The translations under genes and the position numbers were made by a program. 64,000 bases of DNA. It comes from Candidatus Omnitrophota bacterium. GTDB taxonomy: Bacteria; Omnitrophota; Gorgyraeia; 1-14-0-20-64-10. The stretch spans positions 4,401 to 68,400 of the forward strand of contig JAHFFE010000007.1 in NCBI GenBank assembly GCA_023248155.1, written 5' to 3'. The number at the start of each line of letters is the position of its first letter. The stretch's first letter is position 1. Shown piece by piece: positions 3,341-49,497 of this stretch. The notes beneath the pieces are model-generated. The model did not search any database. It had not been told where the DNA came from and saw only the letters and a program-made list of their open reading frames with translations.

Positions 3341-3389
3341 ATAGAACTATTCGGTTCTTGTTAGTCGTGGAACAAATTTATAGGTAATC

Positions 3390-3418
3390 TTGACTTTTTA
3401 AAAGGATTCAGGTATATT
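3390..3418 (+). promoter_or_regulatory. Sigma70-like promoter for the giant-protein array
   Basis: TTGACT (3390..3395), an exact 17-nt spacer, then TATATT (3413..3418). This makes the TTG at 3419 an implausible start codon. Confidence 0.55.
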
Positions 3419-3445
3419 TTGTACAAAGGGGATACCTATAAGAGG

Positions 3446-5197
3446 ATGATTATCAAGATATCCAGGATAGGGTTCATTTTTATATTCCTTTCTTTTTCAG
3501 GGACAGCGATCCCGTCTATCTACGCGGTCCAGGAAGAAGGCCCCAAAACTTTCTGGGAAAGCCATGGTAAAGTAGAAGACGAAGAATCCGCGCCCGGTTT
3601 CAGCGGTGAATCGTCGATCGATACCGGATCCAAATTCCAAAAGCCCGACCAGCCAATCCCATTAACACTTGAAAATCTTCGCATTCCCACTCAGGACGGT
3701 TCCCTCAAAAAAACATATTCCGCGCGCGAGCCGTTGGTGATTCATATTCAGGACGCGCATGCCAACTATGAAGCGCAGAAACATCTGGCCAGTATTCTGG
3801 AATATCTGGTGGTCACGCACGGTCTTTCACTGATCCTCGTTGAGGGCGGCTCCCGCAACGATTCGCTTTCCTATATGCGCACCTACGCGCCGATTGAGAA
3901 ACGCAAAGAAGTCGCCGAAGAATTCTTGAAGAGCGGAAAAATCTCCGGTGAAAACTACCTGGACCTGACCACCGACTACAACTTTACCGTTTATGGCATC
4001 GAGAAACCGGAACTGTACGACGAGAACATGGAAGCGTTCTTCAGTGTTGAAAAAGTCCAGCCGCAGGCGCTCTCCGCGATGAAATCGTTCCGCGAGGCGG
4101 TGGAAAATCTCAAGCAGACGATCTATCCCGACGAAGTCAAAACGCTGGAACTGCGCGAGCTGGAAGTGAAGGAAGGGCGCATCCCGCTGGCCCAGCATTA
4201 CCAGTCTTTGGCCGATGAGGCCGGCAAGCGCAAAGTGGCGCTCGACGATAAAACTTATCCGAACCTGCTCAAATTCATCCGCGCCAGCGGCATGGAAAAA
4301 GAGCTGAACTTCAAAACGGTCGAAACCGAGCGGACCAAATTTCTGGAAGCGCTGACCAAATCACTGCCGAAGCCGGAAATGGACAAACTGCTTCAGCAGA
4401 GCTTGGATTTAAAGAAAGGGCTGGTGACGCCGGCCTCATTCTACGGCAACCTGCGCGGGTATATGAAGCCGGGGCAGAACGCCGAATATCCGATATTGGC
4501 CAACTACATTGAGTACCTGGCGCTGTTCGAGGCGATCGACCACGCGTCACTGTTTACCGAGGTCGAAAATTTGAGCGACCAGATTAAAGACAGCTATTTC
4601 AAGGAGAAGGGGCAGCGCATATTGGCCAAGGCGGCTAAAGATGTCGGTGTGCTGGAAGATTTACTCGAGCTGAAATTAACGCCCGACAGCTACGACTATT
4701 ACCGCACGCACCGCAAAGAGTTTAAACCCGATGAATGGGCCGATAACCTGCGCGCGCTGGGCAGCCAGCAAAATCCGCCGATGACGCTGCTGCTTTCGCC
4801 CGGCCCGCTGAACGCGGCGATGCCGGCGATGAGCAGTTTTTACGAGGTGGCGCGCCAGCGCGACCAGGCGATGATGGACAATGCGCTCAAGCAGATCAAG
4901 GAATTCAATGTTCCGTTCGCGGTGCTGATTGCCGGCGGGTTTCATACGCCGGCGTTTGAACGGCTCTTTAAAGAACAGAAAGCGTCATACGCGGTAGTTG
5001 CGCCCAAGGTCAGCAAAGTGACGCAGGAAGACACCGATAAATACCACCGCGTGCTCAAAGAAACGTATGTGCCGATGTCGGAGAAATACCGGCAGAAGCA
5101 GGGATTGCCGTCGTCGTCGCTCGGTGCGGCTTCCGTGCAGACTCGCAAGACAGCGACAGCTTCATTAACTGAAACAGGGGCCGCTTCCGAAGGGTAA
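3446..5197 (+). CDS. Exported protein 1 of the array (584 aa from ATG 3446); possible TraB/GumN-family fold
   Basis: The N-terminal hydrophobic segment IGFIFIFLSFSGTAIPSIYA|VQEEG is a compact version of the motif shared by the next four genes. HxxH (IQDAHANYEAQKH) and C-terminal FAVLIAGGFHTPAF weakly resemble TraB/GumN (FxxVGAGHLxG). The start is uncertain: 3446 is the first ATG after the promoter. Confidence 0.6.
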   Translation: MIIKISRIGFIFIFLSFSGTAIPSIYAVQEEGPKTFWESHGKVEDEESAPGFSGESSIDTGSKFQKPDQPIPLTLENLRIPTQDGSLKKTYSAREPLVIHIQDAHANYEAQKHLASILEYLVVTHGLSLILVEGGSRNDSLSYMRTYAPIEKRKEVAEEFLKSGKISGENYLDLTTDYNFTVYGIEKPELYDENMEAFFSVEKVQPQALSAMKSFREAVENLKQTIYPDEVKTLELRELEVKEGRIPLAQHYQSLADEAGKRKVALDDKTYPNLLKFIRASGMEKELNFKTVETERTKFLEALTKSLPKPEMDKLLQQSLDLKKGLVTPASFYGNLRGYMKPGQNAEYPILANYIEYLALFEAIDHASLFTEVENLSDQIKDSYFKEKGQRILAKAAKDVGVLEDLLELKLTPDSYDYYRTHRKEFKPDEWADNLRALGSQQNPPMTLLLSPGPLNAAMPAMSSFYEVARQRDQAMMDNALKQIKEFNVPFAVLIAGGFHTPAFERLFKEQKASYAVVAPKVSKVTQEDTDKYHRVLKETYVPMSEKYRQKQGLPSSSLGAASVQTRKTATASLTETGAASEG

Positions 5198-5226: not shown

Positions 5227-8200
5227 ATGAGAATATTTCAGCGGGAAAGATATCGAACCATAATTGCCTTCATTACAATCCTTTCTATTTCCTTTACCCA
5301 AGCTTTGCCTGCCTGGGCTCTGCGCCCTGGGATTGAAGGCCGCTCCCAAGGTGGTCTTGAAGAAAGTCTCCGCGGCGGTACAGCACTTTCAGCTTCTTCT
5401 TCCACTGCTTTACAGGCTGTTTTTTCCGCGGTCGGTCAGATTGAAGATCAGGAGGGCCAACTTCCTGCCACCACGCGGGAGATTGTCATCTCTCTGCTCG
5501 ATCAATTAGAGCAAACCGATCCCACGATTGCCGCTAAGGTGGGCAACCGGGCAGCTGTTCTGTCCCAGATGGACGAACTATTATCCAAAGCTCCAAATGA
5601 AACCTGTCTGACCTGCGGAACGCACGCCGTTTCCAATGTCGCTTTTTCCAGCGCTGAGCGGGCAAAGCCGGAAGGATTACAGTCGGATCGTTTTAACGAT
5701 ACCGAGGTGTTAACTGCCATTTTGATTGTCCTCGATCTGATCAACAGCGGCCGGGTTTTATCGCTATCCGAATCGGATGGGCATCAGGTTCTGGCCAATT
5801 CCATGCTTTCGCTGCGTCAGGCGCTGAATATGCTTGAGGATCGGTTGCCCTCTCAAGACCGGAAGTTATGGACGGGGGCTGAGATTAAACAGGCGGATAT
5901 GGAGAGGCTGCTGAAGGACGGCTATCAGGTTGTCGCGCATCTCGATGGGGATCACTTCGTGCAGGTTACCCGCGTTGAAGGCGGGCGAGTCTGGTACAGC
6001 GAGCCTCGTACTGCGCAGTTTGACGCTGAAAGCCAGCTTTCGATTCGTGATTTTGGCAAACGCTGGGGAAGAGGCGTTGTCTTAACCAACGGGCGAATTC
6101 CTTCATCCAGAACCACATTGGCTGATTCCGCGTTATTAAATTTGCAGGGCTGCTGCGGCATCAACACTGTTTTTGGACAGAATGGCGGAGTTCGTTCCTT
6201 GCTGGACGCGCTGCTTCGTTTGAAATACCGGGCTCCAGACAATACCGGCATCGCCGTCATGACGGAAAATGGGATACAGGTGGTCCGGGTGGGCAAGGAT
6301 GTGCAGGGACATGGAGACGGGGCTCCGGATACGATGGTGGCATTACTTTACAATAATCCGATTTATCCGGAGGCGGTTCCGCTGGCGGTGGAGTGGGGCA
6401 AGAAAAATAGGGCGGGCCAACAGTTCCATACCGAATTAGAGAAAGCAGTAAAGGAAGGAATAGATGATTTTAGAGAGGCGTTAAAATTGTCCAATGCGCC
6501 GCGAAAAGAGACTCTCTTGAAATCGGCCGCCGGGCATTTTGCCCGAGCTGAACAGTATAAAGAACAGCTGACGGTGATGGCTGTTCAACAGGTGCGTGAT
6601 ACCGGGAAAAAACTGCTGGACGATGAGGGTTTGCCGGATCGGCGCGCTGAATTAAAGGGAGATGCATCTACGCTGCGGAACTTGTTTAGTACGGGCATAG
6701 ACGCTGTTACCGTTCATATCGGCCAGGTTGGTGGTATTTGGGCCGGTGATCAATTTTTAATTCGCCATGATAATTTGCGGCAGTTAGTTGAGAAGATCTC
6801 CGCCGCGTTTGGCCTTAACGAAGAGTTTGTCCGCCTCTTTTTGCGCGTGGAGTTATCCAATGTGACCACCGAGCGGTTTGGAGAGAATTCAGCTCAGGCG
6901 GGCGCGGTTTTGGAAGTATTTGACCGATTGTCTTATTCTGCTGTTTTAGGGACACTGACGAATGACCAGCAGGCGGAATGGGATCAGAAAGTGATGAAAT
7001 ATTTGCTGGGGCGCTGGCTCAAAGTTCCGTCTGATTTTAATGTCGACGCAGTACGGCATGTTTTTCGAGCGCAGGCTTCTTTGCTTGGAATGATAAGCCC
7101 TCGCGATGAAAACCCCAGTCTGCATCCTGAATTTCTAAGTGAACTGGCAAAAGAATTTGATCGGCGCATGCCTTCCAGGAAGGGCCAGTTTATGGCCTAC
7201 TGGAAACGTGAACGCGATCTGAATCAGCCGGGGCATGCGTTTGCCGCGCTAAATGAGGTTTTTCATAAATGGGCGTACCAATACAAGGTTGACCTGTGGG
7301 ATGCGAATTCAAAGAGCTATAAACAGGTTCAGTTGCTGGATCAACAGCAGTACAGGGTGCTTGCCGGAACAGGACAGGCTTCCGCCGCCACGGTTCGATT
7401 AATTGGAGAATTGGTGGTTGGCCATGGCCGCTGGGCCATGACCGGAGATCCCAGCCGCTGGAATGCCCATCCGCATGAGAGCAGGGACATGGTTCTGGTT
7501 CATAACGGTACGATTAACGGAATTACGAATGCCACGCTGAAAACCGAGCATAATACCAATGGATTGGCGGCTGCTTACCATGAGAATGGCAACCTGGAAG
7601 GTCCTGAAATTTTAACGGATACGCGGATTATCGTTACGCATTGGCAGTATTTGCAGGATAAAGCGGCCGCGGATCTCGAGTCAGGCCGCATGGGAGAGGA
7701 TTTGATCTATGCCGATGAATCGGACGAGGGAACGGCGCTTGGAACGCGGCTCGAAAAGAAAGGCGAAGGCGACGATGCTGTTACCGGATCAAAAACAACC
7801 GGCCGCGTGCGGGAATGGAACGCCATTGTTCGGAATTTAAGGTCGTCGGGCCGTCAGCATATTTCCGAGAATGAAGTTGCCGTTCGTTTGGCGATGACGG
7901 AAATGGCGGAGGGGTCCGAGATCGGCGTCAGCGCCAACAGTTTGCATGACCCCTTTGTTACTTACGTTGTCAGCCATGACCGGCCGGTGGATATTGTGAT
8001 TCATGAAGGCAAAGTATTGGTGACTTCCGACATGGCGGCCGGCATTGCGTTGTTTCCGGCAGCCGATGTTTCGAGAGCGGCTCAGGAATTATCTAGAATG
8101 CACCGCCGGCTCCAGAGCGAGCTGGAGGATCTCCGCCAGAGGCGGGATGAGAATGACCTTACCCCCGAAGAATATGTGGTCGAGGTCAAGCAGGCGTTTG

Positions 8201-11200
8201 CCGCTTACAAAAAATCAGCCAACCCCATCAAAGAAAAATTCAAGATCGATGTCTATCATTTGAAAGAGTTGAACAAATTCGCCGCTATTCGCAGGGTAGT
8301 CAACAGCGCGGGTGAAATTGAATTAAGCGTTGATATTTCGCATTTGGACGGAACACCGCTGACCGAAAAAGAATGGAATAAAGAGGCAAAATTTGAAAAA
8401 GCCAAAGTAGATCCGGATGTCGGTGTTAAGGGCGGGTACGCCACCTTTATTGAAAAACACGTGGATGAAATCCCGTCGATTTTGTTGGATGACGCCACCT
8501 CGTACATTGAAGTTGACGACGGTCGTCCCGCGCGCGTTCACCTTCCGGATATTAAGACCGATAAACTGACCGGCCGGTTCGGTCCCAAGCTTGAGCGTCT
8601 GCGCCGGGTTTTCTTGATTGGTGTCGGTTCTTCGTGGCGCGACGCCAAAATTGTCGAACAGATGTTTGGCGATTTGCTGCAGGGGGTGGAACTGGTGCAG
8701 ATTTCCGTTCAGGATCCGGTGGAAATTCAGAACCTTGGGATTAAACTGAACCCGGAAACTGATCTGGCGATCGGCATGAGCTGGTCCGGATCAACGGCAT
8801 CGATGGTCAAGCTGTTCAACCGTCTTTCGAGCGGAGAAGACCAGGGCCAGGATGTTCCGTTGATCGCCGTGACCGGTAAGACTTCATCGGATATGGCCAG
8901 CGTTGCCAAGAGAAGCGCGGGGTATGTGGATGTGCAGTCCGGGCCGGAATCATCGGTAGCAACCACGAAAGGATTTGAATCGGTCCTTTACTGCCTCTGT
9001 TTGCTGGGCGTGCAGTTAAGCCAGATGCAGGGCAATGACAGTTTAGTATCGGCCCGCACCCAGTATGTTCAGGAATTATGGGATTTGGTTGACCAACACA
9101 TGGATGCATTGGTGCGGGAACCCGGAAAATCTTCCGGACAAAAAGAACGGTCCACCGCTAAAGTTGAAAATCCCCAGGAACGTTCGAAAGTTCAAAAAGT
9201 GGCCGATGCCTGGCATAGCCGGCAGAAAGTGCTCGTCATTGGAAGCCGCGCCAATCCGGTTTATGTCGAAGGGGAACTTAAGGCGGAAGAAATTGCCTGG
9301 ACGGTCGGCAAGGCGGCGGATATCCGTGATGACAGCTGGCGGTCTTTGCTGGAAAACAGCGCCGATCCCCATGTGACCGAATCGGAGCGAGTCGCCACCA
9401 TTTTTAACATGACGGATCCGGGCACGTTGGATCAGTTTATAAAGGCCATTCGTGAAGTGACGGATCAGGGTATCCAGGTGGTGGTCCAGACATTTCAAAA
9501 AGACAATTCCCATTACGCTGAACTGCAGCGGATGGAACAAGAAGGAAGAATCGCCCTGTTTGAAGTTCCGCGGGTTCGCACGACGCTGCAGGCGTTGGTC
9601 GACGCGATTTTCTTTTTTCAATTTTCAATTGCGTTTGCCCGTTCGCACGGGTTAACAGATCCGCAGATCGATAACCCGAGAAACCTCGCGAAATCAGTCA
9701 CTGTCAGCGGCGCTCGCTCATTGGAAGAGCTGGTCCGGAACTCGGCGACCCGCGTGGTGAAGGTGGACGATATTACTGGGCGGCTGGATGCTTTGCAGCG
9801 CATCTACTCTGTCTATCGGAGCGGTTTAGCCGCGCGATGGGCGGAGCTGCGCTCCGCTCGTCAGCAGGCCGGCGCCCGCCTGTCCGTATTGTTGAATGGG
9901 CTTGTCCGGGAATGGTTTGGAAAACTGGCCAAGCCGAATGAACCGCAATCTCTCTGGCCGGAGGCATCTCAGCGTGATCGCGCTGAACGGTTGCTTGCCC
10001 GGTTTAAACAAGCGGCCAATGCCGATAATCCGACGGCTAAGGTATTGATTGTAACCGACGAAGAAGCCACCCAATACGCCGGCGAAGCGGCTGCCGGCGT
10101 CTATGGTTCCCGCGAGGTGGTTGTTTCAGGCGAACATAAAGATCTCTATGATGCCGATAAAGGCATTAAAATTCGCGCCGGAAAATGGTATTACCGTGCT
10201 TCGTATGACGTTGTTGCCGAGAATTACACGCTGAAGTTTGACGCGAAGCTGAATCCTTACGCGAATCCAGGCGAGCAGCCGGCGGATGCCGGTCCCATCG
10301 TGATTGTCAAAGGACAACAGCAGGTTTCTCTCAACGGAAAACAGTACCGCGTGGATCAGGGCTCGTTTCTCAAGGATCCCAAGGAAAAAGACAAGCTGGT
10401 TTCCGGGCTTCAGATGCGGGCTGAACAGCCTGACCTATTGCTGGCCGGCGTCGAAAATATCCGGGTTGTTCGGGCAACGGATCCCAATGTGGATCAGATG
10501 GTTGATCAGGATACGGTGGTGGTGCTGGTTTCGCGCGCGCGAAACAGGGGATCGGACAATAATAAGGACACGCTCCTTACAAAGCCCGATACCAGGAAAC
10601 AACTTCCTATTCCTTCGAATGCCCAATCCGAACAGACTATGCGCGCGTTGGCGGATCGTTTGGCAAAAAAAGCGATCCCTCTGGTGACGATTGCCGATCG
10701 TGATTCTCTCTTGGAGGATCCTTCATTGGACGAAGTTCGGGTCACGCACTTTTCGCTGGGGAGTGATTTTACTTCATCAAGCGTTTATCCGTCGACTTAT
10801 GTGGCATTGCTGGCGGCGGGTGTCCGGATGGGAGATATCTTGGGGCGTGATGTCCAGCCGGTGGCCCGCTCTCTGTTCGCGGTGCCTGGCATGGTGTCGA
10901 ATGTTCTGGGTTCAGAGCAGCTTCAGAAGCATCTGGAACAGGTTTTGTATCGAGTTCGCGGGTATAAAAAGGTGCATATTATCGGCGGCGGCCAATCGTA
11001 CGCCGATGCTAAGGAATTAGCCCGGGTTCTTTCAACGCTGGGTATTTTTGCTGAAGCCCAGTTGAATGACTCTGCCTGGCATGGGCCGTTGGCCGCGGCG
11101 GATCCTAACCGCAGAAAATACGGAGAACCGGGATCGGATGCCTACAAATATAAATATGGCGTCAATGACGGTTACGATACCGATGGCGATACATTGGTTG

Positions 11201-14200
11201 TCATCCTTGCGACCGACAGCCGGTTTTTTGATTCGGCCATTACCGATGGGCAGGTTTATGATTCCCGCAATGCCCGGGTTCTTTTCCTGACTTCGGATTC
11301 CAACTACGCGCCGAATCTTCCAAGCGGCGATAAAAATCCGGTTCACCGTTCGATCATTGATTCCGGACCTTTGCAATTAGAGGAGTTAACGGAAGCGCAG
11401 GCAAAAGATCCGTCATTGAAAAATCCGGAGGGTGTTTTTACGGTTCTTGACGCGCCTGATTTTCTCTCTAATTTTGGAGCGTTTGCGTTTGGAATCATGC
11501 TGGCGGATGAATTCTCGCATCAGAATGAGGAATCCCTTCGAACTCGTCCCGCCGAAGAGATTAGCCGGTTTAATTTGAGTGCCGAGTCCGCCTCTCCTGC
11601 GGGGGTTCCATTGGACTCTGTTCCTTTGCCGCAGCCGTTGAACAGTCTGGAGACTTTTTTGACCACGAGCGGCGGCCGCCCATTGGGCGAATCAAATCTT
11701 TTTAATCAATTAAGCACTCTGTCGGCAAAGCAATCGATCCAGGGGGTAATGGCTCCTTATCGTGACAGGCCGCAACAGACGGCTGTTTATCTGGCGTTTC
11801 CCTATCAAGATCCGGGTCAGGCTCAAACCGTGCTTACCGGTATTGTTTCAGATGTTGCCAATTTTCTGAAAAAGCGAGACCCAATCATCGATTCCTTTGG
11901 CCGAAGTTACGATGGGATTTTTTATCTGACACTGGTATTTGATAATACAGTCTGGTCTGCCGTTCCCGGCTTGCTTCAGGCAATTCAATCGTCTGTTCAG
12001 GCCCGCGCAGTTCCGGGAGCGCCTGTTTCTATTGATTCTTCCGCGATGCCTGGCACGGGAGTACAATCATCCACGGTATTTACGGGTCTCAGGGAAGGGG
12101 TTGTTGGCGGAGATGCGGCCGCTGAGACGGCCTTTATTGCCGAAATGAACCGGGTGCTTGGATTTGAGCACGTGTCCGATCAGGGGGATGTCGCGAACCA
12201 AATTCTGGAAGGTTATCGCCGGTTCCATGAAACGCGTACTCCTCAGGTTTTCGCGGTGCCCCATCCTTCCGGGGAGGCCAACCGATTCATATTGGCGGCC
12301 ATCGATGAAAATCTTCCCCATTTGGTAAACGCGCATGTGACCGAGCCGCTTGATCGGAGGGAAGGATTGGATTATGCGACATTAGCGGGACAGAGAATCG
12401 ATCATGTCGCCGGATTGATGGTCATGGATGTTCAAAATGTTCTTGCGGATGATATTGCCGCGATCGCCGCGAAAGCTCAGAAATCTTTAAGAGGCGCGGA
12501 TGCTCCCGCCGCGTTCCTCGCGATTTTTGATCCGTTTGAGTACCAACTTCCGGGATCGCCGCTAAAATCTTCTGTCTACGCTGAATTCCTGCTTGTTCAG
12601 GAAGGGGCCAAAGTTCGGACCATCATTTCCGATTATGTTCCTCTTCGTGGGCAACAGAATGCCTTCTCGGTGACCTTTCGGGATGATACCTTATCTGCCG
12701 AAGCGCTTGACCGCGATATTCGCGCGGCCATCACCCGACATGGTTTAAAGATTGCAACCGACCCTGCCGCAAATGAAATGGTATTCTCGGTTGTCTATGA
12801 AGGGGTTCGCTTTATGCGATACATTGTGAATTCCATTACTACCGTAGACGGCAAGCTTGATGAGAGATTGTTAACAACGGTTGAAGAGGTTGACGCCTTT
12901 GTCGCTCCGTCTTCCGCGGACAGTGCCGTGGTGTTGCGCGATCAATTGGTTGAACAGGCGCACCAGGAATTTCTGGCGGACCCCATCCAGGGGATTCATT
13001 TTAAAGCCGAATACGATACGCAAACAAATCAAACGGTTTTGGTTGTTGTCAGTGAAATTGGTCAGCCCAATCTGGTGGCGGCTGTTTCTGCCGTCGTATC
13101 AGAGGCCAAGCTTGATCTTGGGAGAAACTTTGGCGCGCTTTCGGATCGTTCCGGAGAAGATGTGGAGTATTTCATCGTACCGGGCGAAGTGCCGGCCGCG
13201 ACCATTGACCAGATTCAAAACAGACTCTCGGCAACGGTTACGCTTCATTTCCAGAGAGCAGTGTTGGAAGTGCTGCCTTCTTTAAATTCAAACGAAATAG
13301 CTCTCCATTTTCGTGACTTTAGATCCGCGGTTGAGAACGGGGTTGCTTTCCCAACTTTGTTGGCTGAGGGCACTTCCAATCCGGATAAGCAAATCCTCTC
13401 GTTTGCTGTTCGTCAGCCATCCGTTGCTGATATGCGAATACAGTTATTACAATCTATCGTCAGAATTTTCGACTTAAACTCAAACGGGATTACCGGAAAC
13501 ACTTTTTTTGAATACGACGGTGTAATGATCTTCCATGCGAATATCGCAAAAACCGCACTCGGTTCCCCGATTAACGTTGTACAACAGCAGATCACGGAGG
13601 TCTTGCAGCCGTTCAAGGCTGGTTTGGAAGAAACCGCTGGAAAAGCCACCGAGGATCAACGGCTGGATGTGTTGGGCGCCAGCGCACGGTTCCTGCGGGT
13701 TTTGGAGGCGGGCGGTGCCACGGTTACATTCTCCGGTCCTTTGCACGATAACGGTTTGGTTAATTCGTTGGAGGGCGCTGTCAGCGTTGTGAACGCGCAG
13801 CGGCTGGAGGGAGGCGCTTATACGGTGGCAACCTATTACCCGGGTGGTGGAACAAAGACGAGCGCTGTTCTTTTGGAACAGAGGGAATTGCCGGATGTTC
13901 AGGTTAGGGATGTGACCAGCGACTTGAATAATTTGCGCGCCTCAACGGCTGAAGCGGTTACTTTCACTCTGAATCAGGTGCCGGTTGTTTCGAGTCAACA
14001 GGCGATAACCCAGGGATTTGTATTCGGATCTTCAACCGGGCTGGCTCTCGGGGTAGCGTTAAGCCGTGTCCAGGATTCTAACGGGAATCGTTTGCCCGCG
14101 GCTTTTGTGGTAGCCAACGGAGATCAGCGGGCTGTCTTGGAGCGGATCGACGGGATTTCTCCGGAGAGCATCCACGCTACGGCAGACCAGGCCGAAGCGT

Positions 14201-14382
14201 GGCTGTTGGAACAGTATCCGGCTGTTACGTCCGATGCAATTCAGGATTTCGGAATAACGAAACCGGTTTCTCAAACCGTGGTACAGATTTTTGAAATTCT
14301 GTTTGGCATCACGCCGGATGCCGCGCTTCAGTTCCAATTAGAACAGTTAGTTGCCCAGGCCACGCTGGCCTTCCAGGCATAA
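5227..14382 (+). CDS. Giant exported protein 2 (3051 aa) with an embedded GlmS-like module (class II glutamine amidotransferase + 2 SIS domains)
   Basis: An uninterrupted 9.2 kb ORF with a GGAGAGAGA SD. The N-terminus is TM/signal plus AWALRPG..GLEE. Internal matches to E. coli GlmS by eye: [23 protein letters not shown] (MCGIVG..LRRLEYRGYDSAGLAV), [29 protein letters not shown] ([29 protein letters not shown]), [11 protein letters not shown] (ETDTEVIAHL), SIS motifs [14 protein letters not shown] and [11 protein letters not shown] (VASTKAFTTQL), and C-terminal [10 protein letters not shown], identical to the GlmS C-terminus. Confidence 0.85.
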   Translation: [3051 protein letters not shown]

Positions 14383-14386
14383 AAAA

Positions 14387-17300
14387 ATGAAAATAAAATT
14401 TTCTCCGGTTTTTAAGAGATTTGCAGGCTGGCTTGCAATCGTTTCATTAACACTTTTGCAGGCAGTACCCAGTTATGCTCTACGCCCCCTTGCTGCCGGA
14501 CAGGAAGAGCGAACTCAAAGCAGTTTGAAGCAGTCACTGCGTTTATCAGCTGGGAATGCCACCTCCGGTTTTGAGGAAATTCCTGCTGAAGTTGCTGCAG
14601 AAGCTGAACTGCGCAGATGGAAAGAAGATAAAGGCACTGGCTTCTTTATTACTCCTCAGGGCGGACGGGTGGCAATTCATACCAATGTTCCTGGATTGGA
14701 TGTAAATATTTTCTCGATTGATCGGGAAGCTCAGATCTACTCCACCGCTGTTGTGCTTGGTGAGCAAACGGTTCTCAAGAAGGGCGCCCAGGTGTATGGC
14801 ATCGTGCAAGACGCGGAAGTGCATGAGAATGCCGTCCAGCGCGGTATTTTAAGAACGCTTGTTTCGTTGGCTGAGGATTGGAATCCGAAATTTTTGGGAG
14901 CGCAAGTTCCTTCTGATCCGGCGATTATGACAAAGATCAGCGGCAAAGAAGTCATCAAATCCGTTCTGGGCAAGGGAGCCCGTATTGAAACCAATGAGGT
15001 GGAATTAATCAACACCCATGTTGATTCGGTGGATGACGATAACTATCGAACTATTTTAGGATTGGGCGGCATGTACCAGAATGTTGAGATCGGCGCTGGA
15101 AACCGCCACGTGGGTCAGGGGCGCATCAAGGTCATGTTCCCCACCCGGTTTGAAGATCTGGTAACGGTTATGGCCGATGAGGGAGTGGTGCAAGAGTTCG
15201 CCGAGGCGCGAATTCCGATGGGCCGCACCTACGCGGGCGATGCGCATGGATATATTGAGTTTACAGGCTCTAATGGTTATTTGTGGATGGACGGGGTTGG
15301 CACTGTTCACGAAGTCAGCAATCTGCCCTCCGTGGGTGTTTCTATTGGTGAGATCTTTGCCAGCTTTGACGGCACTCTTCCGCTGAAGGAAGCTACCATT
15401 CCGAAATTGACTTCAAAGCAAGGAAGCGGCCACTGGTGGGTTGGCGGTGGGGCCGGGACGATTTCCGCGGGAGCGGTAGTCATTGGTCTTCACCATGGCG
15501 CTGTAACGGAAACCGGTGATCTTTTGAAGGCGTCCAATGTCACCGCGCCGGCTGGTTTTGTTGTGTTACAAAATTCAGTGACGGGCATCCCTTTTCCGGG
15601 TAGTCATGTTACCGGTTTGAGCCAAACCAAACAGCAGAATCCTCTGTGGGTGTTCCGTGAGCATCCCGAAGTGGTCTGGGGGTTGGTCTATGAAGCATGG
15701 CAACAGGCCAAGCGGGTGGCCGAATTGCGGGCCATACAAAATACTGAGTTTGATAAAAATGCCTACCTGAAACAAGCGGCCATCGATTTGGCCCAGTGGC
15801 CGCAGAGAATGCTTTCTACTGTTTCCGCATTGGCAGGGCAAAGGAATCGTTCGGATGTAAAGCAGCAGGCCGATTCATTAAGAAAACAATTCAGCATGGA
15901 AGCGAATACTCCGCAGCTGTTGGACCAGTTGGTTGAAGGGACAACCGCAAAGACAAATGGGTACAGCGATGCGGTTGCGTTGGCAAGAAAGCTGTGGAGT
16001 GAAAGCCCTCTCTCTAAAAAAGATGCCGTGGTTCGAGATGCTTTGAAACAGCATGTTTTATGGTCCGATCAGGATCGCCGTTTTTTTGAGAACGGAGCGC
16101 AATCTCCCATAGTTCAATCGTCCGTAGAAAAAGACCCAACCGCTGTTGTGATCGGATCCAATCGCTTGACGGGCAACACTTACTTGGGCCGGGGCGTCAT
16201 CGTCGTGGGTTCTGAACTGCACGATGTTCGCGTGGAGGGTGTTTCCGAAGCCGATTATGCGGCTGGCAAGAGGGTTCTGGTGATTAACAGCCGTGTTCAG
16301 CGGACTTCTGTTGGAGAGGGAACTTCTCTGGTTCAAGTGGTTGCCGACGGCATGAAATTGGGCAAGAATTCAGATTTCAGACTTTCACGGCTGGAGCGCG
16401 GCGCTGTCGGGGATCAATCATGGGCCTCAGGCGCTTATTTTGTAAATTCCGCTGTCGGCAGTAAAGCCGAATTGAAAACAGGTTCCTACACATTCAATAC
16501 GACCGCCGGAAACACGGTAATCATTGGCGGTATTCTAATGGAGTCCGTCGTTGGAGACGGTTATGTGATGAACCATGCCGGAGCGGCCGGTTTTGGTGTG
16601 CGTGCTTCGAACATTCCTGTTAAGAATGAGACTGGAAAATTATTGGGAACAGTGCCTAATCCGACCAACCATTCCGACGGGGTGTTGATGGGAGATCCTT
16701 CTAAAGGCCCGGATCAGGTCTTTCTAGACGGGCATGTAATGATGGGCGCTCACGCCTGGCTGAAAACGGTTACGGACGATGGGGAATTAAATCCGGTCCA
16801 TATCGGGGCCGGTTCTTTTGTAAAAGGATTTGTTCCGCCGGGGCAGAGGGTTATCCCGCTTCAGTTCTTTGACGCGGCAGTCAACGGGAGTGCGAATCCT
16901 TCTCTGGTGCTGGATCGTCTTGGGCCATCCTTCATTCAGTTTTTGATCGGTTATCCGCTGCGTAAAGCTAATCCTGATCAGGCGCAGCTGGTTGCTTATT
17001 TGATGCCGACATTGATCCGCGAAGCCATTGCTCAATGGGATCAATACGGCAAAGCCATGGGTTTTTCGCCCGAGCAAATAGCTGCTGTGAAAGCACAGCT
17101 GTCCGACGAGCATTTGAACAGCGGCAATTGGAATTCGGTTTGGGATCCGGGCCGATCTGCGCCAGAGGCAGTCCAGCCGGGGCTGGTTCTTCAAGTTCCG
17201 TTGTTTAAAACTCCTGACAACAAATATGCTTTTGGCGGACCCAAACCTTCCGTTGATTCAAAAAAACCTGTTGTTTCGCTGGAGTCGGTGCCTGTCCAAA

Positions 17301-20224
17301 ATCGCGTTCTTGCCATTGAGTTGGGAGGCACATTCATACGGGTGGCTTTGGTGGACAATCGTGGTGATGGGAAAATTCTACTGACCGTTCCGGATGCGCA
17401 AATCGCGTTTATCCCGAATGTAGTTCATAGCGACGCATCCCAGAGACAGACGGTTCTGGATCAGATTGCGGCACAGGAACAGGCGCTCCTGAGGGCAGCC
17501 GGAATTGACGCTGCACAAATTGGTAAAAAAGCTGTCAGTTCTCCCGGTATTATCGATCCAAGCGGATTCGTGAACCTTCAATATAACTTGCCGTTTACCG
17601 GACAGAGCCTAGCGCAATTGCTGCAGGCAGATGTCATGAACGACATGGTAGCCGCTGTCTTTTCGGAAGCCACACCGGCAGCTTTTGAAGGGGTGGGCCG
17701 TGTTTTCTATGCGACTATTTCCAGCGGTGTTGGTGCGGCAGATATCGATAAATCAGGTCAGGTAACGAATCGTGAACTCGGAGGGCTTGCAGTACCCGGA
17801 GGCAAGTTGGAAGATTTTGTATCAGGAATCGCATTGGGCAATCTTGCTCGTCAAAAAGTCGAACAGCAGGCTGAAGGGTTTCAGAGGATTCTTCAGTTGG
17901 CGGATGGAGATAAGCAAAAAATTGAGGGAGTAACGGTCGGACTGGCTTTTGCCGAGGGAAATCCGGTTGCCGTTGAATTGGTCAATAACGCGGCTCGAAT
18001 ATTAGCTGATGGAATCGTGAGCATGACTCGTACTGTTGCGGATGGACAGCCTGAGTCTGTCCGATGGATTCTTGGCGGCGGAGTCGGCCAGGGAATCGGC
18101 CAGAGATTCCTCTCTTTGGTAGATGAGCAAGTGCGGAAAAATTTGGGGCCCTCTTCTGACTTGAAAATATTTATCCAGTTGTCTACTCAAAACCCGCAGG
18201 AGCGCGGGTTGGTGGGTGCGGCTCGAAAAACCGCCGCTGGCCAGGAAGAGACCATTACGCTGGAATCGGCCGCGCAGATCGTACGCGGTTGGGATCAACT
18301 GCAGTTGGCTCAGCAACAGGCGGTGGTACAGTCGTTGGCCGATCACGGCTACACGACGGAAAAACATCTCCGCAATAGCGGATTGGTCGTGAACGGATCT
18401 TCGGATCTGCCGGCCAGTTTCGTGGCGTTCCCGCCGGTCGTGGATGGCACGCCGCGGGGAAACGAGCGTGAAAATTTACTGGCGACTGGATTGTCTCCAG
18501 CTGTGTTGCAGAAGCAGGGCGTGATTATCGCTGCGGCAGGGGAAGGGTCCCGTCTTTTGCAGGCCGCAATTGAGCAACAATTGTTGCCGTCCGATGGCGC
18601 CGATATTTACACAAAACCGACAGCTCCGGTCACTCCGGTTCGCGGGCAGTCCACGCTGGGATACCAACTTGAAACTTTGGCCGACATGGCCGCCACGCAC
18701 GGTGTTTCCATGCCGGTTCGCGTGGTTTTGCATCCTGAAGTCGGCCGCAAAGTGGCCGACTGGATCGCGGCCAATCGAAATTTCGGGCTGCAGCATCTGG
18801 AGCTTGTTTTTCAGGGGATGAATCCGGCGCTGGATGAAACGGGGCAGATTGTTTTGCGCGATGATAATACCGTTTCGTTTAATCCGGACGGGACCGGCGG
18901 TGTGGTTCAAGCGGCGTTGGCCAACCGCGGCGAGCAATGGTTTTTGAATCAGCTGGGGCAGGATGGGCGCGTTCAGGTGATCAACGGCGATATGCTGCTT
19001 GAAGCCAACCTGGTTGGATTAGTCGCCGGGGTCGGCGAGACAAAACCGGTGGTAGGCATCGGCTATAGATACCCTCTGGAGAAAGAATCTCCCACAGGTC
19101 CGCACCGGTTCAAACTGGGGACATTCACGGTGTTGAATGAAGGAGGTCGAACGGTTGCAAAAATTGTTGAGTACAAAGAGCGCGGATTGGTAACTGGCAT
19201 GGCGGGTGCCGTTGTAACCGCCGAACAAGCAGGAACACCGATTATAGCCAACAGCGGTGTTTACGCGTTCCCGGTTGCCGGTCTGGCGGCAAAGACCGCT
19301 GATTTGGTTCCGCATCATCAGAAAGATAAAGATGCGGCCGGGGTGGCTGAAAAAGTTCAAAAGGTTGAAAATTTTGCTACCGATATTCCTGCGACATTCT
19401 CGTCTGATCAAGTTGGGATTTTGTCGGTCGATCAGGCTGTTTTAACGCCTGTCAAAGATGCAGCCGCTCTGAAGCAGGTTCGTGACGGGGCCGTTGCTCG
19501 CGAGCGAGCGCGTGCCCAGGCGCTGGGAATTAAATTGTCGGACCGGGCAAGCGTGGAATTTCATCCGGCGTTATTGACGGCGGGTCGGGTTCAAATCGGA
19601 AAAAATGTTCGTGTTGAAGGCAATGTCGGTATTTATTTCGGGCCGAATGGCGTAACGCTTTACAGACAGGCTCAACCGGATAAACCCTGGGAACCGTTTG
19701 CCATGGATCAGACCGAGACTCTCCGGTTTGCGTCTTCCGCCGCCGGCGTAGTCATTCGAATTCCGGACAATACGGTCTTTTCTGAAACAGGCATTACCGC
19801 GGGCGCGGAAGAGCGTGGTCAATTGCCGTCGGCGACGGTGCAGCGCGCGAATGTGGGCGTGGTGGCCGCTACACCACGCGGATTGGCCCTTGGTGTGGCG
19901 ATCCAACAAGGCGTACAGGGTGTGGAAGTGGCGTTCGTGGCTGATAATGAAGCGCAGGCATCGGGATTGGAAGAACGCGGCGTCCGTCGTTCGGCGATCT
20001 TTCTTGCGCCGCAGTATGGGTCGGTTTCAGCGGCTGCCGATGCTGCAACGGAATGGCTTTCAGCGAAAGGTTTCAGCGCACAACCGCTGGGTGTTAATGG
20101 TCCCGTCACAGGCCGGATTGAACTTGTTTTATCGGGATTGGGTATTCAGTTGGCGGCTGGCGCCGAAGAGATTTGGAACAACTTCGTTAACAATGTTACT
20201 GCGGCAATGAGCGCCCAGGCATAA
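14387..20224 (+). CDS. Giant exported protein 3 (1945 aa from ATG 14387) with an ASKHA sugar-kinase-like domain, a UDPGP-family UDP-sugar pyrophosphorylase-like domain and left-handed beta-helix segments
   Basis: The ATG lies 4 nt after the preceding stop. The N-terminus has the TM plus SYALRPLAAGQEE. Kinase motifs: VLAIELGGTFIRVALVD, SSPGIIDP, YATISSGVGAA, ELGGLAV. UDPGP motifs: IIAAAGEGSRL and FNPDGTGGV (UAP1/UGPase-type PDGNGG). Hexapeptide-like runs are present, e.g. GKNVRVEGNVGIYFGPNG. Confidence 0.85.
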   Translation: MKIKFSPVFKRFAGWLAIVSLTLLQAVPSYALRPLAAGQEERTQSSLKQSLRLSAGNATSGFEEIPAEVAAEAELRRWKEDKGTGFFITPQGGRVAIHTNVPGLDVNIFSIDREAQIYSTAVVLGEQTVLKKGAQVYGIVQDAEVHENAVQRGILRTLVSLAEDWNPKFLGAQVPSDPAIMTKISGKEVIKSVLGKGARIETNEVELINTHVDSVDDDNYRTILGLGGMYQNVEIGAGNRHVGQGRIKVMFPTRFEDLVTVMADEGVVQEFAEARIPMGRTYAGDAHGYIEFTGSNGYLWMDGVGTVHEVSNLPSVGVSIGEIFASFDGTLPLKEATIPKLTSKQGSGHWWVGGGAGTISAGAVVIGLHHGAVTETGDLLKASNVTAPAGFVVLQNSVTGIPFPGSHVTGLSQTKQQNPLWVFREHPEVVWGLVYEAWQQAKRVAELRAIQNTEFDKNAYLKQAAIDLAQWPQRMLSTVSALAGQRNRSDVKQQADSLRKQFSMEANTPQLLDQLVEGTTAKTNGYSDAVALARKLWSESPLSKKDAVVRDALKQHVLWSDQDRRFFENGAQSPIVQSSVEKDPTAVVIGSNRLTGNTYLGRGVIVVGSELHDVRVEGVSEADYAAGKRVLVINSRVQRTSVGEGTSLVQVVADGMKLGKNSDFRLSRLERGAVGDQSWASGAYFVNSAVGSKAELKTGSYTFNTTAGNTVIIGGILMESVVGDGYVMNHAGAAGFGVRASNIPVKNETGKLLGTVPNPTNHSDGVLMGDPSKGPDQVFLDGHVMMGAHAWLKTVTDDGELNPVHIGAGSFVKGFVPPGQRVIPLQFFDAAVNGSANPSLVLDRLGPSFIQFLIGYPLRKANPDQAQLVAYLMPTLIREAIAQWDQYGKAMGFSPEQIAAVKAQLSDEHLNSGNWNSVWDPGRSAPEAVQPGLVLQVPLFKTPDNKYAFGGPKPSVDSKKPVVSLESVPVQNRVLAIELGGTFIRVALVDNRGDGKILLTVPDAQIAFIPNVVHSDASQRQTVLDQIAAQEQALLRAAGIDAAQIGKKAVSSPGIIDPSGFVNLQYNLPFTGQSLAQLLQADVMNDMVAAVFSEATPAAFEGVGRVFYATISSGVGAADIDKSGQVTNRELGGLAVPGGKLEDFVSGIALGNLARQKVEQQAEGFQRILQLADGDKQKIEGVTVGLAFAEGNPVAVELVNNAARILADGIVSMTRTVADGQPESVRWILGGGVGQGIGQRFLSLVDEQVRKNLGPSSDLKIFIQLSTQNPQERGLVGAARKTAAGQEETITLESAAQIVRGWDQLQLAQQQAVVQSLADHGYTTEKHLRNSGLVVNGSSDLPASFVAFPPVVDGTPRGNERENLLATGLSPAVLQKQGVIIAAAGEGSRLLQAAIEQQLLPSDGADIYTKPTAPVTPVRGQSTLGYQLETLADMAATHGVSMPVRVVLHPEVGRKVADWIAANRNFGLQHLELVFQGMNPALDETGQIVLRDDNTVSFNPDGTGGVVQAALANRGEQWFLNQLGQDGRVQVINGDMLLEANLVGLVAGVGETKPVVGIGYRYPLEKESPTGPHRFKLGTFTVLNEGGRTVAKIVEYKERGLVTGMAGAVVTAEQAGTPIIANSGVYAFPVAGLAAKTADLVPHHQKDKDAAGVAEKVQKVENFATDIPATFSSDQVGILSVDQAVLTPVKDAAALKQVRDGAVARERARAQALGIKLSDRASVEFHPALLTAGRVQIGKNVRVEGNVGIYFGPNGVTLYRQAQPDKPWEPFAMDQTETLRFASSAAGVVIRIPDNTVFSETGITAGAEERGQLPSATVQRANVGVVAATPRGLALGVAIQQGVQGVEVAFVADNEAQASGLEERGVRRSAIFLAPQYGSVSAAADAATEWLSAKGFSAQPLGVNGPVTGRIELVLSGLGIQLAAGAEEIWNNFVNNVTAAMSAQA

Positions 20225-20229
20225 TCGTA

Positions 20230-23200
20230 ATGAATTTAAATCCAAAAAAAATCATCAGCGGCCTTATTGTAGGCACTTTCTTTTTCTCCCAGGTTACGCC
20301 CAGCTACGCGCTGCGCGTTCAGCAGCCAGTCGGCGGCGAAGCCGCTTCGGGGCTGGAAGAGAGACTGATCAGCCGTCCATCGCAAGGTTTTGCGACGCGC
20401 GTTGGCGCTGTGCGCGGTGCGGTTCAGACGGCCCGCCGCTCGGTAGGTGCCAAGCAGGCCTCTGTTGCCTGGAACCTTAAAGACGGGCAATTGAGCCCGA
20501 TTGCGTGGGCGTCGGGTCCGGCACTCCCGAATGCGACTACCGTGGTTCCCGCCGTTTTGTCGCGCGCCGAGCAGGGACTTAAATGGTTGTATGGAAAACG
20601 GTCTTCGGTTGCTGTTGTTGAAAACTCTCTAAGGAACGATTTATTAGGCGATTCGGTCTCCGTTGAGTTGCGTGCCAATCATGGCATGACGCTCGATTTT
20701 GATCGCGGAGACAATGCAGTTCGCTTGGATACGACAATTGCCGAAGAATTGTTCGATTCTACCGATATCGATCAGAACGGTCTTTCGGTTTTATACGGAA
20801 TCGGCTTTTTTTATCAACTGCAGTTGGTGGCTGGTCGTTCTCCTCGGGAAGCGGCGCATCTGACGCTGGCACTCTATCAAAATATTTCCGATACTGAACG
20901 GGCTGCGTTGCTTTCTGTTTTAAGATCTCCGCAAATCGATCATGGCAACCAATGGGCTCGCTTCTTTGAGGAAGGATCTAAGCCGGCGGACTATCGCGGG
21001 ATTGATTCGTTGGAACTTGAAACGCGGCTGGAAACCGAAACCAACACGGACACTCGAACAGCGCTTGAAGCAGTTGTCAATCATCGCGACAAATTGGTTT
21101 CTTGGTTGCTGGGCCAACAGTTGATCGACCTTCCGTACGATCGGACAAAAATGCTCGAAGCGATGACGGCCTTTGAAACCAATGTGGATGCCGGTCGTTC
21201 TTTGGCATTTGAGGCGGTCAAAGGTTTCGACCGTAAAGTTGAACAGGCGAATGCCGATCGAGTCGGCACCATGATTCGCGAAGAGTGGCTTCCGGATAAT
21301 ATGCCATACCCGACACTGCTGGCTGGTCGTTACAGCCGCGCGTTTGGCAACCAGGGCGGGTTGGCAGCCAATGCCGTCTATGTGGAAGCTAATCCGGGAA
21401 TCCGTGATTTAGCCCAGTTGTTGGAAACAGAGGCAAAAGCAGAACAGTTGCTGGCTGAATTAAAAGCATTGGAGAGCAGCGTTCCTGCGCGTGCCTTGCC
21501 GAAATTTAGAAAAGCAGAACAAAGAATCGAAGCATTACTGGTTCAGTTGGGGCCCGGTATTGCGCGCATCCGTTTGCTTGTTTCAGGTCAGGCGGCTGCG
21601 TTGACGCAATATAAAGGAGCACTGCAGCAGATTCGTGAAAATATCACGATCTTTTACCGCGAAGCAGCAAGAGTCATTGAGTCGGCCCGTGACACGGCCA
21701 ATGCGGCCGGCGGCAAAGGAATCCTGCGACGGTTAACACAGAATGTTTCAAAACCATTTCAAGCCGCACAAGAAAAAGTGTCCGAATTTGCGGCCCAGAG
21801 CGGTCGTTTGGCAACAATTACCAATGATTTGGAAACCGCAGCGCTTCAGGCACCGTCACAGCCGGCTGCTTTTAGTGTTTTGTTGCAGCGGCCATCACCG
21901 ACCGGCTCCATCAACTTCAATGCCAACGAATTAGTCGAAAAACCAGAACAGGAACCGGCACTGCGCGAATTGGCCCGATTGGGAGGCCAGAATAGCTATA
22001 CCAGCCCCAGCTATGACTGGGTTTCTGAAGCGACCGATATCATTGAAGCCGCTCCGTTGTTTATTTATGAGCGGACCGTTGTACTGGAAGATGGCAAATC
22101 CGTCACTGTTTTTGAAGTCGACCAGGAAGGTCTCGAGCAGACAGTCCGGCAGATGGCCGATTACTGGGCGCTGAACATTGATAAAACAATCGATTCAGAA
22201 CATCTGGCATTAGCCCGCGAAATTGTTGTTGCCGCCGATCCTGTTCTTTCAGGGCGGGCCGGTCAATTAACAGGGCAGGGCATATCAGTAGAAGCGGCAC
22301 ATCGGCAGGTAATTTATGAAGCGTCTGAGAAGCGTCCTGAACTGCTGCGGCTGGTGGGAACCACGGCTGCCTGGCTGGCCGCGGAATTTGACCGGCGGAT
22401 TACGGAGGTTGAGAAACATACCGAAGCGGAATGGCAGAAAGATCATTTTATCGACCGGATGGAGTCATTGCGCGATGTCGTGGTTACGGGGCGCTCTCCA
22501 TCTGAGTTACTGTCATTGGCTCAGGATGCGATTGGGAGTCATACGGCCGAGGTAGACCGTTTGACACCATTGGCATTACGCCGTCGTAGACCGATGCCGG
22601 CATTTCATTTGTTAACGACGCAAGCGCCTGGCCTCGTGCAAGGTTTCTTTCAAGCGGTTCTTGAAGAAGAGATGGCGTTGCGCAATGTGGCCAAAGCCAA
22701 AGGGTTGGATGATGAGGTTCGCGATCGCGTAAAACGGTACCAGCAGAGAATCGCCGAATTGGGCCGCACCGTCATTCAGGAATTTGGTTATCAGCCGATT
22801 CTGGAACAAAAGAAATCAGAACTTCCGGCCAGTATGGCGGATGACGAGAAGGAACGGCAGGCGATTCAACGGACGATTGCCGATCATATGCCGTTGCAGC
22901 AGGAACTGGCAAAATTGGCAGTGCTGGTTGAGTTTGCGGAAGCCGAAGGAAAACCGATGGATCCGAGCCACCCCGATCCTTCGCAGGTGGAAGAAATTAT
23001 TTCCGGACAAACCGTCGAGTTGACTGCCGAGGCGGTTCGGGCCGTTTGGCAGCGCAACCAGCTGGATCCTGAGCTGGCTAATAAGGTGATAGCGCTTGAT
23101 TCGACGCAGACTGATGAAGCGGCGATTGCTCAGGCGATTCATCAAACACCGATCTATGAAGAAGAACTGCAAAGCAATATCCGCTGGCTGGCGCGTCAGC

Positions 23201-45096: not shown

Positions 45097-45109
45097 AAGG
45101 GAATTTACG

Positions 45110-46507: not shown

Positions 46508-46508
46508 A

Positions 46509-46907: not shown

Positions 46908-46912
46908 AGCCG

Positions 46913-49494: not shown

Positions 49495-49497
49495 CCT

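Follow-up and report, generated by a model that had tools for sequence, protein, structure and literature searches.

In a stretch of 64,000 nucleotides (nt) from Candidatus Omnitrophota bacterium (GenBank assembly GCA_023248155.1, contig JAHFFE010000007.1, positions 4,401 to 68,400 of the forward strand; hereafter the window), four co-oriented genes, g2 to g5, encode giant proteins with predicted signal peptides. The largest part of this study concerns g2, an open reading frame of 9156 nt encoding 3051 amino acids (aa), for which an identical protein (P0001) has been called in NCBI/ENA. It contains a long unit related to glucosamine-6-phosphate synthase (GlmS), an N-terminal-nucleophile (Ntn) amidotransferase, and the residue corresponding to Cys1 of GlmS lies inside the chain at C310. 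Glutamine amidotransferases of the Ntn type (class II) all depend on a free N-terminal nucleophile. Here we describe the GlmS-like unit, the peptidase-like domain and leader-like motif upstream of it, and the surrounding genes, which together point to a precursor that would be cut to free the enzyme. The coordinates of all features are collected in Table 1.

The long GlmS-like unit of g2

The initial annotation had recognized a GlmS-like module at residues ~300-1500 of g2, with large insertions separating the conserved blocks, and our alignments bear this out. Residues 310-1493 are co-linear with GlmS from Cys1 through the C-terminal PRNLAKSVTV, and GlmS 1-65, 70-131 and 216-608 correspond to g2 310-~375, ~725-800 and ~1038-1493, respectively. 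The three motifs quoted at that stage (GCCGINTVFG, the 29-residue glutaminase core and PRNLAKSVTV) were all found in their places, and the last is indeed identical to residues 598-607 of E. coli GlmS. The GlmS-proper region thus falls within the flagged range, but the functional unit extends beyond it, to residue ~2108.

Profile searches, which had been named as a check, gave significant GlmS matches, although Pfam alone gave nearly none. The NCBIfam glmS model TIGR01135 matched g2 in three stretches (E=1.7e-43), phmmer against the PDB returned E. coli GlmS and human GFAT as the best matches, with Cys1 paired with C310, and the profile of the GlmS-like family reached GFAT1 at E=7e-50. Pfam produced a single SIS match on the whole of g2 (E=3.2e-7, aa 1914-1961), outside the flagged range, and sub-fragments of g2 yielded only weak, sub-threshold GATase_6 (E=1.2e-5) and SIS matches. 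This near-blindness of Pfam is probably why the module has remained unannotated, and Pfam by itself would have led to the wrong conclusion that there is no GlmS-like module.

To locate functional residues, E. coli GlmS positions were mapped onto g2 via the family hidden Markov model and an alignment of seven giants. In the glutaminase domain, the E. coli residues Cys1, R26, D29, R73, W74, N98-G99 and T122-D123-T124 correspond to C310, R335, D338, R735, W736, N760-G761 and T797-D798-T799 of g2; S934-D935 was noted as well. The glutamine-site and oxyanion residues R335, R735, W736, N760-G761 and D798 are invariant among the giants. In the first isomerase module (module 1), S303, S347/S349/T352, K485, E488 and K603 correspond to S1136, S1185/S1187/T1190, K1352, E1355 and K1489. 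Both SIS subdomains, reported earlier as present, were confirmed with S303 and the phosphate loop. Catalytic residues, a further check that had been named, are kept rather than lost, and the inventory in g2 is nearly full. The substitutions relative to E. coli GlmS are T76M, H77T, Q348W and E351S.

The catalytic set of GlmS comprises Cys1, Glu488, His504 and Lys603, with His504 among the three isomerase catalytic residues (PMC9272926). In module 1 of g2, position 504 is W1371, and His was found at this position in 0 of the 22 family members examined. A second, degenerate copy of the entire isomerase domain (module 2) occupies aa ~1723-2108, as revealed by hhalign of the family against the canonical GlmS profile (probability 99.1%, E=8e-19). 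Module 2 retains H1952-G-P-L, E1930 (E481) and E1943 (E495) and has neither S303, S349, T352, K485 and E488 nor the K603 tail; H1952 is invariant across the long GlmS-like family. The two modules are complementary, module 1 holding all of the isomerase catalytic residues but His504 and module 2 holding His504 alone. In GlmS, His504 reaches over to the adjacent subunit and forms part of its active site (PMC3224219). Since complementary residues are retained and His504 acts across the GlmS dimer, the most likely arrangement is a pseudo-dimer within the chain, in which the tandem copies share a single composite active site. Duplication and complementary decay would then apparently have rebuilt the homodimeric site of GlmS in one polypeptide.

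The unit is not peculiar to g2. A full HMMER search with g2 aa 310-1493 against 1.84 billion representatives identified 55 proteins at E<=1e-30, and canonical GlmS of ~610 aa began to appear only near E=1e-16. The better matches are long proteins, namely giants of ~2200-4900 aa and free-standing proteins. About 20 clusters of giants also carry a GlmS-like unit, and 37 free-standing members exceed 1000 aa (mostly 1290-1880 aa) and start with MCGIV. These uncharacterized free-standing proteins (P0015-P0068, P0152, P0153) have the same insertions as g2, including the ~370-aa insertion in the glutaminase domain, likewise have no module-1 His504, and carry an 'ESAHGPL' motif in module 2 that matches the loop of g2. 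They share 20-33% identity with g2 over the whole-unit alignment and up to ~37% in matched stretches. They differ from g2 in having no signal peptide, C39-like domain or leader motif, and their Cys1 would be exposed by ordinary Met removal, whereas that of g2 is internal. The free-standing members are co-linear with g2 aa 310-~2030, so the GlmS-proper region and ~600 further residues constitute one ancestral unit. The flagged module therefore derives from an undescribed "long GlmS-like" family and is not a one-off insertion; this family was previously unrecognized and is barely detected by Pfam. The two genomic contexts of free-standing relatives that we checked are unrelated to the g2 locus and uninformative.

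g2 is a genuine gene under constraint. The orthologue P0002 is co-linear with g2 and 84% identical to it, and the ratio of nonsynonymous to synonymous substitution rates (dN/dS) between the two is 0.158 for the whole gene, falling to 0.02-0.09 in the GlmS core and rising to 0.22-0.33 across the C-terminal third. g2 is thus under purifying selection, which is strongest on the catalytic core.

The C39-like domain and the leader motif

In every giant that carries a GlmS-like unit, a peptidase-like domain lies directly upstream of it. Peptidase_C39 (PF03412) is the best Pfam family for this domain and matches 4 of 15 relatives (best E=9.5e-6). When the N-terminal profile was compared with the PDB, the C39 domain of PCAT1 (7n87) ranked top (E=0.026), and its HFVVI motif lined up with the His motif of the profile. 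Among 15 diverse giants, the putative nucleophile C130 is invariant, H243 is shared by at least 90%, and an Asp or Glu follows the His by ~15 residues in most.

Between this domain and the Ntn Cys lies a double-glycine-type leader motif, T-L-A-D-S-A-L-L-N-L-Q-G-C|C in g2 (aa 297-309|310; key residues L298, L303, L306, G308 and C309). A leader-like motif ends exactly at the Ntn Cys in all 19 giants examined. Its consensus comprises Leu at -12 (13 of 19), Ser/Thr at -11 (12), Glu/Asp at -8 (12), Leu at -7 (13), Ile/Val at -4 (14) and Gly at -2 (17), followed at -1 by Cys (9), Ala (4), Ser (3) or Gly (3) and then by CG[IV]. With a leave-one-out position-specific scoring matrix (PSSM), the g2 site scored 19.0 bits, the top of 10.8 thousand residues in five proteins of the locus, and the maximum in 20 shuffles was 11.3. 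The published recognition code of C39 peptidases consists of Leu-12, Glu-8, Leu-7, Val/Leu/Ile-4 and then GG, GA or GS (PMC6363468), which the consensus of the giants matches.

Because the leader motif stands at the Ntn Cys and a C39-like domain lies upstream, we propose that this domain acts at C309|C310, either in cis or in trans, a predicted cut with strong support from the motif. The initial annotation had argued that an internal Ntn Cys points either to autoproteolytic processing or to an ammonia-dependent or non-catalytic role. Processing as such is supported by the motif, but the predicted site is C309|C310 and not the G|C bond named there, and in place of the autoproteolysis suggested at that time, a C39-like peptidase acting on a double-glycine-type leader would be the simplest account. 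Our literature search found no prior case of a C39 peptidase coupled to an amidotransferase.

Two further observations concern the peptidase. The sequence MLSESSLRERFGA|ADGGKL at aa 1257-1269 of g4 (window 23998-24036) scored 12.5 bits with the leader PSSM, compared with the shuffled maximum of 11.3, so the g2 peptidase may have targets in trans. g2 contains only six cysteines in its 3051 aa, arranged as C127/C130, C309/C310 and C1256/C1258 (window 5605-5616, 6151-6156 and 8992-9000). The CxxC at the putative nucleophile may mean that the peptidase is redox-controlled.

Neighboring giants and genomic context

By eye, the N-terminus of g2 has the n/h/c layout of a classical Sec-type signal peptide, with a positively charged n-region, an h-region of 12-13 residues (12-15 over the four giants), a Pro that would break the helix and, at -3/-1, A-W-A, in agreement with the exported protein named in the initial annotation. 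The signal ending P-x-[WY]-A-L-R is common to g2-g5 and their relatives, and P28, A31, L32, R33 and P34 are invariant in the seven-giant alignment. Apart from the signal peptide, no hydrophobic segments were found in the four giants. A shared motif follows the signal, in the form LR[PVA]...G.EE.L in g2-g5 (5320-5370, ~14480-14540, ~20314-20370 and ~32057-32110). No NCBIfam model matched the signal or the LRP-GLEE motif; the latter could serve in sorting or docking within this lineage.

The last 900 aa of g2, including the C-terminal extension, had no Pfam, NCBIfam or PDB match. In two relatives, the position of this extension is taken by DUF4954 together with a hexapeptide domain of GlmU type (P0003) and by hexapeptide repeats (P0008). 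A C-terminal domain of ~110-120 aa, likewise with no family or PDB match, is clear in g2, g3 and g4 and weak in g5 (13% identity). The domain, with the pattern '..GLALGVA...AFVV.N..Q..', lies at 14017-14379, 19772-20221 and 31531-31980, and weakly at 35282-35731.

The other giants contain further enzyme-like domains. g3 has a ROK-kinase-like domain (Pfam ROK E=5.9e-8; NanK-like E=5e-9), and g4 has a GHMP-kinase-like domain (GHMP_kinases_N E=5e-11), which galactokinase models also match; library searches recognized no domain in g5. The ROK-like domain (17300-18230) has an 'ELGGT' variant of the ATP loop, and the GHMP-like domain (30300-30650) has 'PTGGGLSSSS' as motif II. Judged by such motifs, the kinase-like inserts look catalytically intact despite their exported context, like the GlmS unit. 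By eye, the N-terminal regions of g3 (14387-15800) and g5 (31970-33400) resemble left-handed beta-helix (hexapeptide) repeats and recall the DUF4954/GlmU-type domains of P0003 and P0004.

Related loci keep the order NagA-like amidohydrolase, ROK kinase, GH94 phosphorylase, 592-aa protein and giants, and in one of them (L001) an ABC permease lies ahead of the NagA-like gene. The 592-aa protein always precedes the GlmS-like giant (L001, L004, L005, L008 and L013). It had no Pfam, NCBIfam or PDB match and could be a partner of the giant or a factor in its export. Giants of related loci also carry domains like phosphoglucomutase/phosphomannomutase (PGM/PMM) and DUF4954/GlmU-type hexapeptide domains. 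Of the relatives with 45-48% identity, the 48%-identical one belongs to a metagenome-assembled genome (MAG) labelled 'Candidatus Omnitrophota bacterium', and two others belong to MAGs labelled Planctomycetia. In L005, a PIN/MazE-type toxin-antitoxin pair (15742-16415) separates the GlmS-like giant from a PGM-like giant.

Genes further downstream of the giants are unrelated. Among them, a copper/cation resistance cluster (window 42800-50364) comprises a MetA-pathway-type outer-membrane channel, an OEP-family protein, a multicopper oxidase with HMBD, a P-type ATPase with HMBD and a CDF transporter. A downstream type I secretion or PCAT partner was considered and rejected, as the OEP-family gene is part of this cluster and there is no ABC/C39 transporter. 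Searches of the window for tRNA and Rfam features were negative, which also means no glmS ribozyme.

Table 1. Features of the g2 locus in window coordinates (residue numbers refer to g2 unless stated otherwise)
Feature	Position (nt)	Strand	Residues	Remarks
ROK kinase	51-734 as listed	+		Pfam; full gene ~400 aa, starts upstream of window
GH94 glycoside phosphorylase	797-3217	+		Pfam
592-aa signal-peptide protein	3419..5197	+		directly upstream of GlmS-like giant
g2, predicted pre-pro-protein	5227..14382	+	3051 aa	P0001
Sec-type signal peptide (predicted)	5227..5319	+	1-31	MRIFQRERYR / TIIAFITILSISF / TQALPAWA; predicted cut A31|L32
Post-signal motif LRP...GLEE[SA]L	5320..5370	+	32-48	common to g2-g5 and relatives
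C39-like peptidase domain, putative papain fold	5557..6096	+	~111-290	
Putative nucleophile C130	5614-5616	+	C130	in C127-x-x-C130
Conserved His	5953-5955	+	H243	in 'DHFVQV'
Acidic residue		+	E258	in 'VWYSEP', ~15 positions after H243
Double-glycine-type leader motif	6115..6153	+	297-309	TLADSALLNLQGC; predicted scissile bond C309|C310, nt 6153|6154
Stretch spanning predicted scissile bond				LNLQGCCGINTVFG
Semi-tryptic peptide predicted from C309|C310 cut				CGINTVFGQNGGVR
GCCGINTVFG	6148-6177	+	308-317	
Ntn (class II) glutaminase domain	6154..8346	+	310-~1040	C310 = Cys1
Insertion in glutaminase domain	6277-7398	+	351-724	~370 aa, mostly helical; further insertions besides
Glutaminase core motif		+	735-763	29 residues
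Isomerase module 1	8347..9705	+	1041-1493	two SIS subdomains and C-tail
PRNLAKSVTV	9676-9705	+	1484-1493	
Linker and isomerase module 2	9706..11550	+		module 2: aa 1723-2108, nt 10393-11550
His504-type loop 'AWHGPLA' in module 2	11080-11082 (H1952)	+	H1952	
C-terminal extension	11551..14016	+	2109-2930	variable among relatives; dN/dS 0.22
C-terminal ~120-aa domain	14017..14379	+		g2 2930-3028 aligns with g4 3801-3894 and the C-termini of P0003 and P0008
g3	14387..20224	+	1945 aa	signal motif; ROK-kinase-like at aa ~985-1293 of g3
g4	20230..31983	+	3917 aa	signal motif; GHMP-kinase-like at aa ~3360-3475 of g4
g5	31970..35734	+	~1254 aa	from Met before signal peptide; signal motif
Secreted subtilase (S8)	35831..37744	+		fervidolysin-type pro-domain; also follows giants in L005

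A proposed activation mechanism and its relation to known systems

We propose that g2 encodes a pre-pro-enzyme in which self-processing by the C39-like domain frees a GlmS-derived, pseudo-dimeric unit, a reading to which we give slightly more than an even chance. The signal peptide would direct export. The C39-like domain, through C130 and H243, would then bind the adjacent leader helix and cut C309|C310, which would release a pro-region of ~280 aa and leave C310 as a nucleophile with a free alpha-amino group. The freed aa 310-~2108 would be a GlmS-derived, glutamine-dependent ketose-phosphate aminotransferase/isomerase of a 'long' subfamily, whose active site would combine the phosphate loop, K485, E488 and K603 tail of module 1 with H1952 of module 2. 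Its chemistry is most likely the amination of a sugar phosphate, as in glucosamine-6-phosphate synthase, and the unit very probably works like GlmS. At the level of the locus, g2 is one of four co-oriented, signal-bearing giants that, with their relatives, embed GlmS-, ROK-, GHMP-kinase-, PGM- and GlmU-hexapeptide-like domains. Together these domains may represent steps of an amino-sugar or nucleotide-sugar route beside the NagA-like/ROK/GH94 set for the catabolism of amino sugars and oligosaccharides.

Several points weigh against this proposal. g2 is not a GlmS equivalog, as it scores 149 bits against the TIGR01135 equivalog cutoff of 418.05 and 142.6 bits against the NF001484 cutoff of 381, and as His504 lies outside the catalytic copy. 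The substitutions Q348W, T76M and H77T may mean that the canonical substrates are altered or the activity on them abolished. The C39 match of the g2 segment (E=0.0021, 18.4 bits) is below the PF03412 threshold of 22, and the g2 leader has Ala rather than Glu at -8. To our knowledge, Cys at -1, the usual residue here, has never been tested for C39 enzymes. Structural models built by AlphaFold from 7-sequence alignments are of limited help: that of aa 60-1060 has a predicted local distance difference test (pLDDT) score of 55.9, falls below 50 in the C39 region and is unusable for the domain or the junction, and that of aa 1040-2150 is good enough for fold assignment only, with active-site loops at pLDDT <50, too low to place H1952 with respect to the active site. 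Finally, g2-g5 are judged to be exported (periplasmic or extracellular) from sequence features alone, and an exported site offers no obvious glutamine, fructose-6-phosphate (Fru-6-P) or ATP. Since glutamine, sugar phosphates and ATP would not be met at the predicted location, three options follow: the enzyme acts in or at another cell, the topology has been misread, or the role is non-catalytic.

Many members of the Ntn superfamily process themselves, and removal of a propeptide is known for B. subtilis PurF. Cys310 could thus be unmasked by autoproteolysis, through an N-to-S acyl shift at C309-C310, with the C39-like domain processing the other giants or further substrates or acting as a non-catalytic chaperone. 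The weak C39 similarity of g2 and the second, weaker leader-like site in g4 (12.5 bits), which hints at targets in trans, would fit this account. However, autoproteolysis needs no amphipathic L-12/E-8/L-7/I-4/G-2 motif and cannot explain its conservation in 19 giants, and the peptidase-like domain sits directly upstream in every giant bearing the unit. The peptidase Cys and His are also kept, unlike in non-catalytic C39-like domains, which are without the catalytic Cys (PMC6363468). We therefore regard autoproteolysis as unlikely. A small probability also attaches to the absence of any processing, in which case the internal Cys would be inert and the unit a pseudo-enzyme or binding module, its SIS domains binding sugar phosphates or amino sugars or using free ammonia, as part of a large surface protein for adhesion or prey recognition. 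The score far under the equivalog cutoff, the substitutions at Q348, T76 and H77 and the lack of expected substrates outside the cell are compatible with such a role, and Omnitrophota giants are generally regarded as surface or attachment proteins (10.1101/2023.11.21.568195). It is opposed by the retained catalytic inventory (C1, R26, D29, R73, W74, N98-G99, D123, S303, S347, S349, T352, K485, E488 and K603, with His504 in trans) and by the low dN/dS of the core, a conservation that spans very divergent members; moreover, a binding module would not require Cys1 exactly at a protease site.

The remaining alternatives concern location. The C39 domains of PCAT transporters act in the cytoplasm, which is also where glutamine, Fru-6-P and ATP are found. 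The four giants might accordingly form a cytoplasmic, membrane-associated metabolon for amino sugars or nucleotide sugars, with the C39 cut made in the cytoplasm as in PCAT. The authors of the Omnitrophota studies themselves doubt the predicted localization of metabolic domains (10.1101/2023.11.21.568195). We find such a misreading of topology improbable in view of the N-terminal segment, whose n/h/c organization, Pro and A-W-A are those of a cleavable Sec signal, the lack of further hydrophobic segments, the signal peptides of the flanking 592-aa protein and S8 subtilase, and the scarcity of Cys in g2. Conversely, the Sec-exported giants might constitute a self-activating assembly line for amino sugars or nucleotide sugars outside the cytoplasm, for example at or in a prey or host cell that could supply glutamine, sugar phosphates and ATP. 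The CxxC-C39 domain would then be a switch gated by redox state or location, with Cys1 unmasked only on arrival; this extension is speculative, and we hold it to be doubtful.

If the giants did work as such an assembly line, g2 would be the first protease-gated Ntn amidotransferase and would provide the first concrete biochemical role and cleavage site for Omnitrophota giants. The pre-pro-enzyme model itself would illustrate how an enzyme that needs a free N-terminal Cys can sit inside a larger protein, as a zymogen with a peptidase and its recognition helix upstream.

Compared with GlmS/GFAT (EC 2.6.1.16; TIGR01135), whose Cys is N-terminal, the g2 module is internal, preceded by a signal peptide and a peptidase and followed by a tail of ~950 aa. 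It spans 1184 aa, against 608 aa in E. coli, through insertions of ~575 aa, ~370 of them in the glutaminase domain, and His504, which resides in the same isomerase domain in GlmS, is supplied from the tandem degenerate copy. With the C39 peptidases of PCAT/AMS transporters (ComA, PCAT1 and LahT; PF03412), g2 shares the papain-like Cys/His signature and 'HFV.V', although sequence similarity is marginal. Their substrate code (L-12, E-8, L-7, V/I/L-4, G-2 and a small -1 residue) is matched by the g2-type leader, in which -1 is mostly Cys. In g2, however, peptidase and substrate are on one chain with a 'cargo' of 2740 aa and no ABC transporter, and the domain follows a Sec signal and is presumably extracytoplasmic. 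Activation by removal of an upstream segment, as proposed for g2, also occurs in Ntn propeptide enzymes such as PurF, with an N-terminal nucleophile, and in the self-cleaving toxins MARTX/TcdB, with effector domains. The PurF propeptide is 11 aa long and carries no protease, and the protease domains of MARTX/TcdB differ in fold and are switched on by inositol phosphate.

A precedent comes from other Omnitrophota giants, which carry signal peptides and, near the N-terminus, C39 domains suggested to 'cleave the giant proteins', and whose sugar-phosphate enzyme domains are predicted, doubtfully, to be extracellular (10.1101/2023.11.21.568195; 10.64898/2026.06.07.730766). The largest architecture cluster consists of 24 long proteins with C39 as the sole Pfam domain (10.64898/2026.06.07.730766). 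The statement in the initial annotation that a periplasmic enzyme of this kind would be unprecedented was thus too strong, as giants with a signal peptide, C39 and sugar-phosphate domains have been reported. The 'Archaeovorins' (West-Roberts et al. 2023 preprint; 2026 complete-genome preprint) resemble the g2 group in signal peptide, C39, PGM/PMM, ROK, phosphoglucose isomerase (PGI) and other domains, S8 peptidase and Omnitrophota host. They are, however, >=30,000 aa long, with many transmembrane helices, HEAT repeats and glycosyltransferases, whereas the giants of the window are 1254-3917 aa (10-30x shorter), have no transmembrane helices and gave no Pfam match to such domains. The terms amidotransferase, SIS, glutamine and double-glycine do not occur in either Omnitrophota giant paper. 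Therefore, the general Omnitrophota theme is known, and what is new relative to these papers and to a full-text literature search is the GlmS-derived unit, its proposed pseudo-dimeric organization and the placement of the C39 motif exactly at the Ntn nucleophile. For the questions of whether and where Omnitrophota giants are cut and what their metabolic domains do, the g2 locus offers a small, clonable case with an exact predicted bond.

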